A stretch of 4,169 nucleotides of DNA, taken from the IMG/VR virus record IMGVR_UViG_2531839368_000014, one strand, 5' to 3'. The position numbers and the translations under genes are program-made. Origin of the DNA: a virus (lineage: Duplodnaviria > Heunggongvirae > Uroviricota > Caudoviricetes). Shown piece after piece: positions 1 through 4,169 of the stretch. How positions within the stretch are numbered: the first letter of the stretch is position 1; every line of letters starts with the position of its first letter. The notes beneath the pieces were generated by a model. That model saw nothing but the letters and a program-made list of their open reading frames with translations, did not search any database and was not told the origin of the DNA.

Positions 1-33
1 GCTTCCATCGGAAACGATGATCTGGCAGCCTGA
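1..33 (+). CDS. transposase orfB, C-terminal fragment (5' partial, continues left of the window)
   Basis: Open frame from the window edge to TGA at 31..33, translating ASIGNDDLAA; it lies just inside the IS right inverted repeat. Too short to judge independently of the IS context. Confidence 0.5.
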   Translation, partial: ASIGNDDLAA

Positions 34-75
34 GTTCACAGATAAAACACTCTCCAGGAAACCCGGGGCGGTTCA
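1..75 (+). mobile_element. 3' end of an IS3-family insertion sequence (IS629/IS1203-like by recollection); right inverted repeat about 41..75 ending in ...GGTTCA
   Basis: Seen in sequence: the reverse complement of 41..75 (TGAACCGCCCCGGGTTTCCTGGAGAG...) matches 4096..4121 (TGAACCGCCCCGGAAATCCTGGAGAC...) at 22 of the first 26 positions, with TG...CA termini typical of IS3-family inverted repeats. Frame 1 of 1..33 reads ASIGNDDLAA-stop, consistent with a transposase C-terminus. The IS629-like assignment is from memory and not verified. Confidence 0.75.
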
Positions 76-439
76 CTTTCGCATGGTGCTTAAACCGTGG
101 CGCGAGAGACGCAGTCTTTCCCAGAATGCACTCAGCCACATGTGGTACAGCGAAATCAGTGAATACCTCATCAGCAGGGGGAAATCGTTCGCTACTTCAG
201 CATGGGTAAAAGATGCTCTCAAACACACATACCTCGGTTATGAAACCAAGGACCTGGTTGATGTCGTAACCGGCGAAATCACTACTATCCAGTCGTTACG
301 CCATACCTCCGATCTTGGTACCGGAGAGATGTATGTCTTCCTGTGTAAGGTTGAAGCCTGGGCGATGAATATTGGCTGCCACCTGACTATTCCACAGAGC
401 TGCGAGTTCCAGCTGCTGCGTGACAAGCAGGAGGCGTAA
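17..439 (+). CDS. NinB/YbcN-family phage protein, apparently 5'-disrupted; the first ~20 codons (17..75) are IS-derived and the first prophage-derived in-frame ATG is at 83
   Basis: The ORF runs 17..439 with stop TAA 437..439 overlapping the ninE ATG (TAATG). It sits immediately upstream of ninE, as ybcN/ninB does in DLP12-like and lambda-like nin regions. A motif RERRSLSQN resembles my recollection of lambda NinB (RNRSLDQN). The IS boundary at 75 falls inside the ORF. Family call is from synteny plus a remembered motif. Confidence 0.5.
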   Translation: MIWQPEFTDKTLSRKPGAVHFRMVLKPWRERRSLSQNALSHMWYSEISEYLISRGKSFATSAWVKDALKHTYLGYETKDLVDVVTGEITTIQSLRHTSDLGTGEMYVFLCKVEAWAMNIGCHLTIPQSCEFQLLRDKQEA

Positions 440-609
440 TGGCTACACCGCTTATTCGTGTCATGAACGGACACATCTACAAAGTACCAAATCGTCGTAA
501 GCGTAAACCTGAGCTGAAGCCATCCGAAATACCAACACTGCTCGGATATACCGCCAGCCTGGTTGATAAAAAATGGTTGCGACTGGCAGCAAGGAGGAAT
601 CATGGCTGA
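439..609 (+). CDS. ninE: NinE-family protein (56 aa)
   Basis: ATG 439 preceded by AGGAGG at 429..434; stop TGA 607..609. Translation [56 protein letters not shown]; length and the basic C-terminal WLR..ARR pattern fit NinE as I recall it. Missing from the ORF track only because it is short. Confidence 0.75.
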   Translation: MATPLIRVMNGHIYKVPNRRKRKPELKPSEIPTLLGYTASLVDKKWLRLAARRNHG

Positions 610-892
610 TTTGAGAAAAGCAGCGCGTAGTCGGGAATGCCAAGTAAGAATCCCTGGCGTATGTAATGGCAACCCTGAAACGTCTGTACTGGCACATATC
701 CGGCTGACTGGATTGTGCGGCACCGGTACCAAACCGCCAGACTTGATTGCCACCATTGCATGTTCTGCCTGCCACGACGAAATCGACCGCCGCACACATT
801 TTGTCGATGCTGCATATGCAAAAGAATGCGCGCTGGAAGGTATGGCGAGAACACAGGTTATCTGGCTGAAAGAGGGGGTTATTAAGGCGTGA
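602..892 (+). CDS. ybcO: YbcO-like DUF1364 protein (putative Cys-rich metal-binding nuclease, 96 aa)
   Basis: ATG 602 preceded by AAGGAGG at 591..597; overlaps the ninE stop by 8 nt. Translation from 602 ([23 protein letters not shown]...CSACHDEID...) matches my recollection of E. coli YbcO almost residue for residue. The track ORF starting at 563 is a 5' extension with no ribosome-binding site. Confidence 0.85.
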
Positions 893-1251
893 ATACCTAC
901 AGCATCACATTACCCTGGCCTCCGAGCAATAATCGCTACTACCGGCATAATCGCGGGCGCACGCACATCAGCGCAGAAGGGCAGGCATACCGTGATAACG
1001 TCGCCCGAATCATCAAAGGCTCCATGCTGGATATCGGCCTGGCTATGCCAGTGAAAATCCGTATTGAGTGCCACATGCCGGATCGCCGTCGCCGTGACCT
1101 GGATAATCTGCAAAAAGCCGCTTTTGACGCACTCACCAAAGCAGGTTTCTGGCTGGATGATGCTCAGGTCGTTGATTACCGTGTTGTGAAGATGCCCGTT
1201 ACCAAAGGTGGGAAGCTGGAGCTGACCATCACCGAACTGGGGAATGAATGA
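889..1251 (+). CDS. rusA: RusA Holliday-junction resolvase (120 aa), GTG start
   Basis: Translation [26 protein letters not shown]...[19 protein letters not shown]...ELGNE is near-identical to E. coli RusA as I recall it. Start GTG 889..891 overlaps the ybcO stop (GTGA); G-rich stretch AGAGGGGG upstream at 871..878. Confidence 0.9.
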
Positions 1252-1388
1252 TGTTTGAGTCTTATATGGCAGAACGTCTTCGCCACCGCTGGATGCGCCT
1301 GCGCTTATATCGTTTTCCTGGTTCTGTTTTGACCGATTACCGGATACTGAAGAATTACGCCAAAACACTGAAAGGAGCTGCCGCATGA
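1248..1388 (+). CDS. ylcG: YlcG-like small protein (46 aa)
   Basis: Tandem ATG at 1248 and 1251 overlapping the rusA stop; stop TGA 1386..1388 overlaps the next ATG. Translation [46 protein letters not shown] resembles DLP12 YlcG and occupies the same slot between rusA and the Q-position gene. Start could be 1251. Confidence 0.65.
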
Positions 1389-2074
1389 ATACCCAATATT
1401 TACAGTATGTCCGCGAGCAACTCATTGTGGCTACCGCTGATTTGAGCGGAGCAACGAAAGGACAGCTTGAAGCCTGGCTGGAGCATGCACAATTTGATAC
1501 TGGTACATACAAACGAAAGAAGCCGCGCATTCTGGATGAGGTAACTGGCAGGATGATTACGCTGGATAATCCGCCGATTTCCGGTAAGCAGTCGTACGCA
1601 AAAGGTTCATCCATTGCACTGGTCAGCCAGGTTGAGTTCTCAACCTCGTCATGGCGCCGCGCGGTTCTGTCTCTCGAAGAACATCAGAAAGCGTGGTTGC
1701 TGTGGAGTTACAGCGAAAGTGTTCGCTGGGAACATCAGGTCACCATAACGCAGTGGGCATGGAGCGAGTTTAAGACTCTGTTGGGTACCAGGAAAATTGC
1801 AGGTAAGACACTGGAACGTTTGAAGAAGTTGATCTGGCTGGCGGCACAGGATGTGAAGAACGAGCTGGCAGGGCGTAAGACCTATGAATACCAGGAGCTG
1901 GCATCACTGGTGGGAGTGACATCAAAAAACTGGTCTGAGACATTTACTGAACGCTGGGTTGCAATGAAACACATTTTTCTACAGCTTGATAGCCAAGCTT
2001 TATTGCTTTTAACGAAAACACGTTCAAAACAAAAGACCACATTTTCACAGCAAGATATTGCAAAACTGGATTAA
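1385..2074 (+). CDS. putative late-gene antiterminator in the Q position (229 aa), not lambda-Q type
   Basis: Last gene of the nin-region chain, followed by a promoter/terminator intergenic region and then the lysis cassette, the canonical Q position. AGGAG at 1373..1377 seven nt upstream of ATG 1385. The protein has no cysteine, so it cannot carry a lambda-Q-like zinc ribbon; a helix-turn-helix-like stretch lies near residues 170-190 (YQELASLVGVTSKNWSETF). Assignment is positional. Confidence 0.5.
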   Translation: MNTQYLQYVREQLIVATADLSGATKGQLEAWLEHAQFDTGTYKRKKPRILDEVTGRMITLDNPPISGKQSYAKGSSIALVSQVEFSTSSWRRAVLSLEEHQKAWLLWSYSESVRWEHQVTITQWAWSEFKTLLGTRKIAGKTLERLKKLIWLAAQDVKNELAGRKTYEYQELASLVGVTSKNWSETFTERWVAMKHIFLQLDSQALLLLTKTRSKQKTTFSQQDIAKLD

Positions 2075-2086
2075 AAATCATATATT
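2058..2086 (+). promoter_or_regulatory. candidate sigma70 late promoter (PR'-like): TTGCAA - 17 nt - TATATT
   Basis: -35 TTGCAA at 2058..2063 and -10 TATATT at 2081..2086 with 17-nt spacing, straddling the Q stop codon (2072..2074), where PR' and the qut site lie in lambdoid phages. Hexamer match only; no expression data. Confidence 0.35.
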
Positions 2087-2142
2087 TTATGTAAATCTGA
2101 TATTTTGCCAATGTTGTACGCACTGGCAGTAATCCAAATTCA

Positions 2143-2176
2143 AGCCCGAGGTTTAAAGCCTTGGGCTTTTCTGTTT
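2143..2176 (+). terminator. intrinsic terminator-like hairpin (9-bp stem, 7-nt loop) followed by a T-rich tract
   Basis: AGCCCGAGG (2143..2151) pairs with CCTTGGGCT (2159..2167) with one G-U pair, loop TTTAAAG, then TTTTCTGTTTCT. Lies roughly 50 nt downstream of the candidate promoter. Confidence 0.45.
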
Positions 2177-2255
2177 CTGAACGGTGAGTAGCCTTCCAAC
2201 CTACCCCAGCCAGGGGGTCTTCAGCTGTTGAGTTGATATTGCTTAGCCCTCTGTT

Positions 2256-2278
2256 GCCAGCTACATGCTGGCTTTTTT
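2256..2278 (+). terminator. intrinsic terminator (tR'-like): GCCAGC-TACAT-GCTGGC followed by TTTTTT
   Basis: Perfect 6-bp GC-rich stem (2256..2261 with 2267..2272), 5-nt loop, then six T at 2273..2278. Located between the Q-position gene and the holin, as tR' is in lambda. Confidence 0.6.
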
Positions 2279-2395
2279 ATTCCAGGCTTGTGGGGAGCAT
2301 CAACTCCGTGCTTTGTCGTTAAATTACCCCGTGAGCCTGATTTCTGACATTTAACGTCCCGGCCTTTTGTCGGCGGCGAAACATTGGCTATTCAT

Positions 2396-2701
2396 ATGCA
2401 CGAAAAAGAGAGCCTTGCCGGAGCGTTCTGGCTCGTTTTGCTGATCATCGCAGGTTGGGGCGGTCTGGTCCGCTACCTGATAGATGTGAAGCAGAGTAAA
2501 GCAACGTGGAGTTGGATAAATGCTCTGGCTCAAATAGTGGTATCAGGATTCACCGGTGTTATTGGTGGCCTGATCAGCATCGAAAGTGGATTCAGTATTT
2601 ACATGATTCTCGCGACAGCGGGGATTAGTGGTGCGATGGGTTCGGTTGCACTGACGTACTTCTGGGAACGACTGACAGGGGTGAAAAATGCAAAATCTTA
2701 A
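2396..2701 (+). CDS. putative holin (three predicted transmembrane segments, about 101 aa), not lambda S-like
   Basis: Small hydrophobic protein with three hydrophobic stretches (AFWLVLLIIAGWGGLV; INALAQIVVSGFTGVIGGLISI; IYMILATAGISGAMGSVAL) and a short charged C-terminus, directly upstream of the endolysin and overlapping it by 14 nt. First ATG is at 2396; the track start at 2384 is an in-frame TTG four codons upstream. Sequence is unrelated to lambda S as I recall it. Confidence 0.6.
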   Translation: MHEKESLAGAFWLVLLIIAGWGGLVRYLIDVKQSKATWSWINALAQIVVSGFTGVIGGLISIESGFSIYMILATAGISGAMGSVALTYFWERLTGVKNAKS

Positions 2702-3164
2702 TCCTCAGCGTAAAGCCTTCCTCGATATGTTGGCGTGGTCAGAAGGAACGGATAACGGGCGACAACCGACACGTAACCACGGTTATGATGTTATTGTTGG
2801 CGGCGAACTGTTTACTGATTACTCCGATCACCCTCGCAAACTTGTCACGCTACACCCCAAACTCAAATCAACAGCCGCCGGACGTTATCAGCTTCTTTCA
2901 CGCTGGTGGGATGCTTACCGTAAACAGCTTGGTTTGAAAGACTTCTCCCCCAAAAGCCAGGACGCAGTGGCATTGCAGCAGATTAAAGAGCGTGGTGCTT
3001 TACCTATGATTGATCGCGGTGATATCCGTCAGGCAATCGACCGTTGCAGTAATATCTGGGCTTCACTGCCGGGCGCTGGTTATGGTCAGTTCGAGCATAA
3101 GGCTGACAGCCTGATTGCAAAATTCAAAGAAGCTGGCGGAACGGTCAGAGAGAGTGAGGTATGA
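2688..3164 (+). CDS. R: lambda R-type endolysin (lytic transglycosylase, 158 aa)
   Basis: Translation [20 protein letters not shown]...[20 protein letters not shown]...[27 protein letters not shown]... is near-identical to lambda R as I recall it, including Glu19 in the AWSEG motif. AGGGG at 2676..2680 upstream of ATG 2688; stop TGA overlaps the Rz ATG. Confidence 0.92.
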
Positions 3165-3622
3165 GCAGAATAACCGCGATTATCTCCGCTCTGCTCATCT
3201 GCATCATCGTCTGCCTGTCATGGGCTGTTAATCATTACCGTGATAACGCCATTACCTACAAAGCCCAGCGCGACAAAAATGCCAGAGAACTGAAGCTGGC
3301 GAACGTGGCAATTACTGACATGCAGATGCGTCAGCGTGATGTTGCTGCGCTCGATGCAAAATACACGAAGGAGTTAGCTGATGCGAAAGCTGAAAATGAT
3401 GCTCTGCATGATGATGTTGCCGCTGGTCGTCGTCGGTTGCACATCAAAGCAGTCTGTCAGTCAGTGCGTGAAGCCACCACCGCCTCCGGCGTGGATAATG
3501 CAGCCTCCCCCCGACTGGCAGACACCGCTGAACGGGATTATTTCACCCTCAGAGAGAGGCTGATCACTATGCAAAAACAACTGGAAGGAACCCAGAAGTA
3601 TATTAATGAGCAGTGCAGATAG
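3161..3622 (+). CDS. Rz: Rz spanin, inner-membrane subunit (i-spanin, 153 aa)
   Basis: N-terminal transmembrane segment ([20 protein letters not shown]) followed by a charged coiled-coil-like periplasmic domain; near-identical to lambda Rz from memory. ATGA overlap with R. Confidence 0.9.
3381..3563 (+). CDS. Rz1: Rz1 spanin, outer-membrane lipoprotein subunit (o-spanin, 60 aa), embedded in the +1 frame of Rz
   Basis: Lies wholly inside Rz in a different frame. AAGGAG at 3368..3373 seven nt upstream of ATG 3381. Signal peptide with lipobox (LVVVGC), then the proline-rich run [15 protein letters not shown]; matches lambda Rz1 from memory. Confidence 0.85.
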
Positions 3623-3647
3623 AGCTGCCCATATCGATGGGCAGCTC
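3622..3647. terminator. perfect 11-bp inverted repeat (GAGCTGCCCAT-ATCG-ATGGGCAGCTC) between convergent Rz and bor; candidate bidirectional terminator
   Basis: Perfect palindrome sitting exactly between the Rz stop (3620..3622) and the bor stop (3654..3656 on the minus strand). Flanking T/A tracts are weak, so terminator function is an inference. Confidence 0.4.
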
Positions 3648-3653
3648 ATGCAA

Positions 3654-3947
3654 TTATTGTGAGCAATACACACGCGCTTCCAGCGGAGTATAAATGCCTA
3701 AAGTAATAAAACCGAGCAATCCATTTACGAATGTTTGCTGGGTTTCTGTTTTAACAACATTTTCTGCGCCGCCACAAATTTTAGCTGCATCGACAGTTTT
3801 CTTCTGCCCAATTCCAGAGACGAAGAAATGGTGGGTGATGGTTTCCTTTGGTGTTACTGCTGCCGGTTTGTTTTGAACAGTAAACGTCTGTTGGGCACAT
3901 CCTGTAATAAGCAGGGCCAGCGCAGTAGCGAGTAGCATTTTTTTCAT
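3654..3947 (-). CDS. bor: Bor outer-membrane lipoprotein (lysogenic-conversion, serum-resistance family, 97 aa)
   Basis: Minus-strand ORF translating MKKMLLATALALLITGCAQQTFTVQNKPAA...; lipobox LITGC; near-identical to lambda Bor from memory; convergent with Rz as in lambda. Confidence 0.9.
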   Translation of the reverse strand: MKKMLLATALALLITGCAQQTFTVQNKPAAVTPKETITHHFFVSGIGQKKTVDAAKICGGAENVVKTETQQTFVNGLLGFITLGIYTPLEARVYCSQ

Positions 3948-4095
3948 GGTGTTATTCCCGATGCTTTTTAAAGTTCGCAGAATCGTATGTGTAGAAAATT
4001 AAACAAACCCTAAACAATGAGTTGAAATCTCATATTGTTAATATTTATTAATGTATGTCAGATGCGAAGGATCGTCACTGTATTCCCGGATTAAC

Positions 4096-4169
4096 TGAAC
4101 CGCCCCGGAAATCCTGGAGACTAAACTCCCTGAGAAAGAGGTAAACAGGATGACTAAAAATACTCGTTT
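4096..4169 (+). mobile_element. 5' end of an IS3-family insertion sequence (IS629/IS1203-like by recollection); left inverted repeat about 4096..4121, element continues right of the window
   Basis: TGAACCGCCCCGGAAATCCTGGAGAC at 4096 is the inverted counterpart of the repeat at 41..75. It is followed by AGAGG at 4137..4141 and ATG 4150 opening MTKNTR..., which I recall as the N-terminus of IS629-type orfA. Confidence 0.75.
4150..4169 (+). CDS. transposase orfA, N-terminal fragment (3' partial)
   Basis: ATG 4150 with a ribosome-binding site 8 nt upstream; open to the window edge (MTKNTRF...). Only 6-7 codons are visible. Confidence 0.5.

Follow-up and report, generated by a model that had tools for sequence, protein, structure and literature searches.

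The open reading frame immediately upstream of the endolysin gene in the window, by which we mean the whole 4,169-nucleotide stretch of viral DNA analyzed here, is in our assessment probably the working holin gene of a mosaic lambdoid lysis cassette from a prophage of the Escherichia coli O157:H7 type, one in which the antiholin arm of a dual start has decayed. The evidence comes from the gene layout, from family and structure predictions for the product, from alignment with lambda, and from a comparison of the start region among 82 E. coli copies and the relatives of the gene in other enterobacterial phages.

Gene layout and identity of the holin

By its predicted gene content, the window covers the late-control and lysis genes of a lambdoid prophage (Table 1). 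The entire window DNA is 100% identical to O157:H7 E. coli chromosomes. Escherichia phage PhiR47_2 shares 97% identity with positions 76-4004, and the nin-Q record of phage 82 (X92588) shares 97% DNA identity with positions 76-2074. The genes follow the order Q, promoter and terminators, holin, R, and Rz/Rz1, which is identical to the order in the relatives, and the gene-order test found the holin beside the endolysin gene in the late lysis cassette. The holin region was found in 1,014 of 5,426 complete E. coli genomes.

The interval between Q and the holin harbors the predicted control elements. The candidate promoter overlaps the end of the Q gene. The first terminator (2142-2178) is the expected target of Q read-through, and the homology of the Klebsiella phage holin module to the window starts just inside or after the second one, at window positions 2266-2370. 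A tRNA scan of the window found none, in contrast to relatives in which tRNAs lie between Q and the holin. An Rfam scan of the window gave no match above threshold; the isrJ model matched positions 2090-2169 below threshold, with 30.4 bits against a gathering score of 37.

Table 1. Predicted features of the window and its DNA identity to phage lambda by position.
Feature	Position	Strand	Basis or remark
NinB, truncated	76-439		
NinE	439-609		
YbcO	602-892		
RusA	889-1251		
YlcG	1248-1388		
Q antiterminator, phage-82-type	1385-2074	+	97% DNA identity to phage 82 Q; PF06323, E=1e-94
Non-coding stretch, 300 nt	between Q and holin ORF		
Late promoter candidate, pR'-like (TTGCAA, 17-nt spacer, TATATT)	2058-2086	+	consensus scan, 9/12; putative function
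Short leader and first intrinsic terminator (stem 2142-2168, then T-rich tail)	2090-2178	+	terminator scan, 12-bp stem
Second intrinsic terminator-like hairpin (GCCAGC...GCTGGC, then TTTTTTATTC)	2256-2282	+	terminator scan
RNA hairpin CGUCCCGGC-CUUUU-GUCGG-C-GGCG; 3' arm holds the Shine-Dalgarno remnant	2355-2378	+	MFE and centroid folds
Degenerate Shine-Dalgarno, GGCGG	2372-2376	+	about 6-7 nt before TTG 2384, 19 nt before ATG 2396; GGAGG in relatives
In-frame TTG, in the place of the ancestral first ATG	2384-2386	+	start used by the PhiR47_2 submitters
First ATG, Met5 of the long frame	2396-2398	+	invariant in copies and relatives; RefSeq/PGAP start
Holin	2384/2396-2701	+	105 aa from TTG, 101 aa from ATG
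Mosaic junction: holin/R overlap and first R codons	2688-2704		lambda alignment
Endolysin R, lambda-type transglycosylase	2688-3164	+	94% identity to lambda R; phrog_90 'endolysin'
Rz, inner-membrane spanin subunit	3161-3622	+	PF03245, E=5e-53; 97% identity to lambda Rz
Rz1, outer-membrane lipoprotein spanin subunit, inside Rz, +1 frame	3381-3563	+	PF06085, E=3e-20; 97% identity to lambda Rz1
bor, serum-resistance lipoprotein gene, moron outside the lysis set	3654-3947	-	PF06291, E=1e-30; 99% identity to lambda Bor
Identity to lambda	2600-2704		44%, random level
Identity to lambda	2701-2750		82%
Identity to lambda	2751-2800		72%
Identity to lambda	2801-3000		86-94%
Identity to lambda	3001-4050		96-100% in nearly all 50-nt bins; 88% at 3151-3200
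Identity to lambda	4051-4096		91%

Read from TTG 2384, the holin frame has the N-terminus M-A-I-H-M and runs to a stop codon at 2699-2701, sharing 14 nt with the R frame. The nearest in-frame stop codon upstream is TGA 2345-2347, and there is no further start codon in frame between it and the TTG. The two in-frame start codons, the five-residue N-terminus and the overlap with R at 2688-2701 had been reported in a preliminary description of this DNA, and all of them are present.

The same description proposed that the product be compared with holin family profiles and its membrane topology predicted. The frame matched Pfam PF16083 (Phage_holin_3_3, 'LydA holin') over model positions 2-78 of 78 with 77.6 bits (E=8e-22; the curated cut-off is 28.4 bits), and it matched phrog_785 'holin' with E=5.5e-40. 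RefSeq/PGAP already names the product 'phage holin family protein' (WP_000544528.1). Three uncharged hydrophobic segments were found at residues 10-29, 40-66, and 68-94, followed by a short, charged C-terminus. AlphaFold placed helices at residues 2-36, 44-68, and 72-98 in the best model, which had a mean pLDDT of 74.7, used 26 homologues, and stood apart from the remaining four models with pLDDT of only 50.6-55.7. Both the profiles and the predicted topology are consistent with a membrane-embedded holin.

Genetic evidence is available for a relative of this gene. Gene 13 of the Salmonella phages ST64T, ST160, and L was found in the phage collection with 73% identity to the holin over the full length. 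The amber mutation 13-am43 of phage L is a nonsense codon within the holin gene (PMC8022706). In the record 'phage L cI-40 13-am43', gene 13 ends early, at codon 50/51, and Gln50 is invariant across the holin alignment. The mutation in gene 13 means that the PF16083 holin family includes a genetically marked member.

The NCBIfam collection holds no model for either the holin or R; its sole match, to CrcB, is meaningless and lies far below the cut-off. Pfam gave no match for R at E<=0.01. Since neither collection matched R, this gene was named by its identity to lambda R and by PHROGs; its PGAP label is 'glycoside hydrolase family 24 protein'. The N-terminus of R carries charges all along, with no hydrophobic segment and no signal-anchor-release domain.

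Relation to lambda and to other lysis cassettes

The preliminary description had described R, Rz, Rz1, and bor as looking almost identical to their lambda counterparts, had judged the holin to be unlike lambda S, and had placed a mosaic junction near the holin/endolysin overlap. The alignments agree with it on all three points. The four lambda-like proteins are 94-99% identical to those of lambda (Table 1), and positions 2705-4096 of the window are 95.2% identical to lambda DNA. The comparison of the holin with lambda S gave E=9 by BLASTP and a probability of 0.1 in an hhalign profile comparison. The NCBIfam model holin_lambda (TIGR01594) matched lambda S at E=2.6e-37 and left the window holin unmatched. 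All three comparisons were negative, and the frame is thus predicted to encode, from either start, a three-helix PF16083 holin with no detectable similarity to lambda S.

Window position 2705 aligns with lambda position 45510, the first base past the S stop codon, so that lambda homology starts within the opening codons of R. The possibility of one sharp crossover with lambda was rejected, since identity climbs stepwise at about 2700, 2800, and 3000. In the 82 E. coli copies compared with the window, the holin bins are 98-99.5% identical, and the mean falls to 92% in the 2701-2800 bin, where 37 copies are less than 93% identical. This drop after position 2700 points to the same junction as the lambda alignment. 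On these alignments R is itself mosaic, its 5' third being a more diverged allele whose boundary lacks one clean break.

The pairing of a PF16083 holin with a lambda-type R is stable in E. coli, in that R of this type follows the holin in all 80 IMG/VR copies, whereas Rz, Rz1, and bor differ among these copies or have given way to other genes. More distant members of the holin family are found with a 179-aa lysozyme (Klebsiella phages), with a GH19 enzyme (a Hafnia phage), or with a Gifsy-2-like lysin (Serratia phage Eta). Among six P22-like Salmonella phages, three types of holin with no homology to one another and three types of lysin were reported (Villafane et al. 2008; PMC2629481). Lambdoid and P22-like phages have mosaic lysis cassettes in which the types of holin and endolysin are swapped as separate modules at gene boundaries, and the window cassette, with its PF16083 holin and lambda-type R, is another such combination with no difference in kind.

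The closest comparison is with gene 13 of ST64T and L (Lederbergvirus), which shares with the window holin the length of 105 aa, the three-helix layout, and the PF16083 assignment. Like the window holin, it is the first lysis gene after Q and the terminators and overlaps the endolysin gene by a short stretch. In ST64T and L, however, the holin is partnered with the gene 19 endolysin (132 aa) and a phage-21-type Q, as opposed to the lambda-type R and phage-82-type Q of the window. A second difference lies in the start region: the Salmonella phages have ATG-A-K-R-ATG behind GGAGGTGGT, an intact dual start, whereas the window has TTG-A-I-H-ATG behind GGCGG. LydA of phage P1, the namesake of PF16083, is assigned to the same Pfam family as the window holin. 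According to the literature, P1 LydA has two predicted transmembrane helices (PMC9025707), as compared with three predicted helices in the window holin. In addition, P1 encodes its antiholin in a gene of its own, lydB, and uses a SAR endolysin, whereas the window has no lydB-like gene and a predicted soluble endolysin.

The start region and its decay

In the relatives, the start region reads GGAGG, 4-8 nt, ATG GCT AAA CGT ATG. This type is carried by Klebsiella, Enterobacter, and Citrobacter, by the Salmonella phages ST64T and L, and by Serratia phage Eta, whose GenBank record notes a 'possible dual start motif'. The homologues begin with M-A-K-R-M, M-K-R-M, M-A-K-H-M, M-K-M, or M-R-M, and they also include sequences from Cronobacter, Kluyvera, and others. 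In lambda, S107 is S105 extended by Met-Lys, and the added positive charge bars the first transmembrane domain from the membrane, making the longer protein an inhibitor (PMC6116005). Judged by sequence, the relatives have a classical dual-start motif in which basic residues separate the Met codons, matching the layout of lambda S107/S105.

The start of the window allele reads GGCGG, 7 nt, TTG GCT ATT CAT ATG. Compared with the relatives, the E. coli clade has lost the A of the Shine-Dalgarno sequence, its first ATG has become TTG, and Lys and Arg have been replaced by Ile and His, respectively. The predicted pairing of the Shine-Dalgarno sequence with the 3' end of 16S rRNA is -5.0 kcal/mol in the window, versus -9.5 to -10.8 kcal/mol in the relatives. 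There is no Shine-Dalgarno sequence within 20 nt of ATG 2396 (-1.5 kcal/mol). Likewise, no Lys or Arg is found between the two starts of the window (Ala-Ile-His), whereas the relatives have Ala-Lys-Arg, Lys-Arg, Lys, or Arg. The N-terminal net charge of the two possible products (H-E-K-E, with or without M-A-I-H) is therefore equal, and for this reason an antiholin would not be expected from the window allele.

Codon 1 varies among the 82 E. coli copies: it is TTG in 77, GTG in one, and GCG, a non-start codon, in four. These four keep GGAGG. GCG is likewise found at codon 1 in a protein cluster of 79 member sequences (P0001). Copies with GCG at this position must initiate at ATG 2396. The rest of the gene is well conserved. 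Forty of the 44 variable codons vary only synonymously, the amino-acid-changing ones being codons 1, 10, 72, and 89, and all copies are intact, with no internal stop codon. This pattern indicates that the predicted holin protein is under strong purifying selection. Together with the variable codon 1, it suggests that the gene is kept functional and the upstream start is not. We conclude from these comparisons that the window allele is probably a working holin gene with a vestigial antiholin arm, whose initiating codon may be TTG or ATG. The resemblance to the S107/S105 arrangement, to which the preliminary description had drawn attention, thus holds as history, since the motif is intact in the relatives; as a present function it probably does not, given the TTG, GGCGG, Ile-His, and the variable codon 1.

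The start annotations in public records conflict: RefSeq begins at ATG 2396 (101 aa), PhiR47_2 at TTG 2384 (105 aa), and gene callers produce lengths of 99-105 aa family-wide. The family-wide comparison accounts for this conflict.

A hairpin is predicted to enclose the Shine-Dalgarno remnant (Table 1). Over 18 diverse family members, its pairing was kept in 95.7% of cells, versus 32-67% in controls in which the partner was slid by 1-3 columns. Compensatory changes occur at two pairs (A-U to G-C and C-G to U-A) of this short helix of nine pairs. An equivalent hairpin, in which a pyrimidine run pairs with GGAGG, was found in every family member examined. RNAalifold on the start regions recovered the six outer pairs only, with weak covariation, and the Klebsiella start sequences fold in a slightly shifted register; the helix would therefore be conserved in kind and not pair for pair. 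The folding energy of the window hairpin was not significant relative to shuffled sequences (z-score of -0.2 to -0.4), nor was that of the relatives. For this reason, the support for the hairpin was taken entirely from the comparative evidence. The hairpin CCCC-UUAUU-GGGGG before lambda S, which we take to be the sdi stem-loop, also gave a non-significant z-score (-0.16). By comparison with it, the window hairpin is plausibly an sdi analogue that masks the Shine-Dalgarno sequence.

The likeness to lambda S is therefore one of layout. Both genes encode about 105 aa with three hydrophobic helices and lie upstream of R, which they overlap, and the family of the window holin shares with lambda S the Shine-Dalgarno-masking hairpin and two Met codons parted by basic residues. 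Distant members of the holin family even start M-K-M-P-D-K, as compared with M-K-M-P-E-K in lambda S. The window allele itself, however, has no detectable sequence similarity to lambda S, and it lacks both the basic residues and the first ATG.

Other readings of the start region were weighed against the vestigial antiholin arm. The first is that TTG 2384 gives a single product, that Met5 is an ordinary residue, and that RefSeq has annotated the start at 2396 in error. It draws on the position of the only Shine-Dalgarno-like element, which has a gap of 6-7 nt to the TTG, while ATG 2396 has none; the strong Shine-Dalgarno sequence of the relatives is also positioned for the first ATG. We nevertheless regard this reading as unlikely: it fails for the GCG copies (four of 82, and cluster P0001), in which the gene is conserved and intact, and Met5 is invariant family-wide even with a spacing to Met1 that varies from 2 to 4 codons.

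A dual start that still works, with TTG 2384 giving a 105-aa antiholin, ATG 2396 giving a 101-aa holin, and the hairpin setting their ratio as sdi does, would account for the two in-frame starts 12 nt apart, the proper spacing of GGCGG for TTG, the conservation of the Shine-Dalgarno-masking hairpin, and the full motif kept by the relatives; it would also agree with the annotation of the PhiR47_2 gene as 'holin/antiholin component S'. It appears quite improbable, however, because the Lys or Arg that confers the antiholin property in lambda is absent between the starts, because codon 1 is TTG, GTG, or GCG in copies that are otherwise strongly conserved, and because the Shine-Dalgarno sequence has about half the strength of that in the relatives.

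Very improbable is the reading of the cassette as the decaying remnant of a defective prophage, with the odd start region a sign of pseudogenization: two IS1203/IS629 ends bracket the window segment, ninB is truncated, and one O157:H7 copy resides in a prophage missing most early genes, but all 82 copies are free of internal stops with overwhelmingly synonymous variation, R, Rz, Rz1, and bor are intact, and the same holin allele is present in PhiR47_2, whose deposited record is a complete phage genome with E. coli C as host. The predominance of synonymous changes was the ground for rejecting a pseudogene reading of the holin.

Three further considerations run against the preferred reading. The TTG has a weak but correctly spaced Shine-Dalgarno sequence and ATG 2396 has none within 20 nt, which would allow the 105-aa form to be the principal or even the sole product. 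In addition, deformylation of the N-terminal amine or partial protonation of His4 could make the long form somewhat inhibitory. Finally, the window copy is flanked by IS1203/IS629 ends in a prophage that has been rearranged, and it may itself never be expressed.

Proposed mechanism and significance

The preferred reading, a working holin with a decayed antiholin arm, leads to the following model. The phage-82-type Q would modify RNA polymerase at the candidate late promoter (2058-2086) and let it pass both putative terminators (2142-2178 and 2256-2282) and enter holin-R-Rz/Rz1. The holin would build up in the inner membrane, probably with its N-terminus outside and its C-terminus inside, and trigger at a set time. 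Since the lambda-type R is predicted to be soluble, the holin would have to form large holes, of a size sufficient to release it. The released R would degrade the wall, and the Rz-Rz1 spanin would then disrupt the outer membrane. TTG 2384 would mark the first start of the ancestral holin/antiholin dual start. With either start in use, the products would differ by the four uncharged residues M-A-I-H, and a lambda-style antiholin would not be made.

Much of this system is already known, including the gene family, its function, the RefSeq annotation, the mosaicism of lysis cassettes, and the occurrence of dual-start motifs in unrelated holin families. The exact sequence is annotated in hundreds of genomes, which leaves it little discovery value. 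No paper about this E. coli allele turned up in the literature searches, nor did a sequence of the phage 82 holin; the phage 82 record X92588 ends at Q. A description of the loss of dual-start features in the E. coli clade was not found in the literature searched. That loss amounts to a small evolutionary footnote and a clarification of the annotation, and the E. coli allele offers a natural variant with which to probe the role of the dual start in lysis timing in a holin family unrelated to lambda S.

Tentatively, and with considerable doubt on our part, the E. coli clade may represent a dual-start gene whose antiholin half has been knocked out naturally, in which the first ATG, the strong Shine-Dalgarno sequence, and the Lys-Arg pair are gone, the holin and the hairpin remain under selection, and lysis timing and its sensitivity to membrane de-energization are shifted relative to the Klebsiella, Enterobacter, and Salmonella relatives. 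More speculatively still, the start region may be a module shared with lambda S. If so, the hairpin of a C-run and a G-run together with M-K-(R)-M-P-D/E-K would constitute a translational-control module that was exchanged or inherited between otherwise dissimilar holin families. The shift in lysis control, if real, would affect widespread prophages, found in roughly a fifth of complete E. coli genomes, O157:H7 included.

IS copies around the segment and mosaicism within R

At either terminus, the window carries one end of an IS3-family element (IS1203/IS629), which indicates that two directly oriented IS copies bracket the 4-kb late-control and lysis segment. The left copy cuts off ninB/ybcN at position 76, and the right copy lies between bor and ybcV, the same place that it occupies in other O157:H7 strains.

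The R gene is a mosaic relative to that of lambda. Its first approximately 300 nt (window 2701-3000) are 72-94% identical to lambda, whereas from 3001 to 4096, which takes in the remainder of R together with Rz, Rz1, and bor, identity is 96-100% over nearly the whole length. Such a step in nucleotide identity suggests a second exchange point within R near position 3000. The R gene of phage PhiR47_2 (3614-4089) is annotated as two CDS, both named 'lysozyme R' (3614-3934 and 3931-4089). The split implies either a frameshifted gene or an error in sequencing; in other respects this R is of the lambda type.

Features of the bracketed segment and of lambda-S-like start regions
Feature	Locus	Position	Strand	Details
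IS right end	window	1-75		100% identity to the IS copy of strain 28RC1
IS left end	window	4096-4169		100% identity to the IS copy of strain 28RC1; transposase start MTKNTRF at 4150
isrJ match (RF01393)	window	2090-2169		30.4 bits; gathering score 37
Terminator hairpin	window	2142-2168		
Promoter-like match	window	2111-2084	minus	TTGGCA, 16-nt spacer, TAAAAT; 10/12 matches
Hairpin and start region	Serratia phage Eta (L111)	~1478-1510		
Hairpin and start region	Erwinia (L015)	~2478-2515		
Hairpin and start region	Hafnia phage (L113)	~1470-1515		
Hairpin and start region	lambda (L002)	1365-1400		

Possible leader and promoter-like sequences between Q and the holin gene

The spacer contains a sub-threshold match to isrJ, a Salmonella sRNA family. 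Since this match begins directly after the -10 element TATATT, with 14 identical bases at its 5' end, and takes in the terminator hairpin, IsrJ looks like the short leader transcript that runs from a phage-82-type late promoter to its terminator. The top promoter-like match of the spacer is on the minus strand, where it overlaps the plus-strand late promoter candidate and is directed into the end of Q.

Start region of the holin gene and its relatives

The annotated start of the window holin gene differs between public records: it is ATG 2396 in RefSeq/PGAP (101 aa, WP_000544528.1) and TTG 2384 according to the submitters of PhiR47_2 (105 aa). Family-wide, PGAP-style entries start at the second Met (99-101 aa), and other gene callers choose the first one (103-105 aa). 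One E. coli allele from IMG/VR (L106-L109; equivalent of window 2372-2386), found in a minority of copies, keeps a strong GGAGG, has GCG (Ala) at the position of the first start, and also carries Ser10Asn; with GCG at codon 1, gene callers push the ORF far upstream, yielding a cluster of 134-aa proteins (P0001).

The Photorhabdus relatives (L016-L028, around 2460-2500) are ~55% identical. Some read GTG-S-L-K-ATG-P-S-D, with two possible starts separated by Lys, and others read GTG-S-F-I-ATA-P-S-D, with one start. This variation between ATG and ATA indicates that a further branch of the holin family has likewise either acquired or lost the second start.

In distant family members, a CCCC-loop-GGGGG hairpin is followed by M-K-R-M-P/Q-D-K or M-R-M-P-N-K, which is almost the layout of lambda S (CCCCUUAUUGGGGG, M-K-M-P-E-K), but outside the start region lambda S has no detectable similarity to these proteins. 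The lambda-S-like layout could be the result of convergence, or of a shared or exchanged start-region module.
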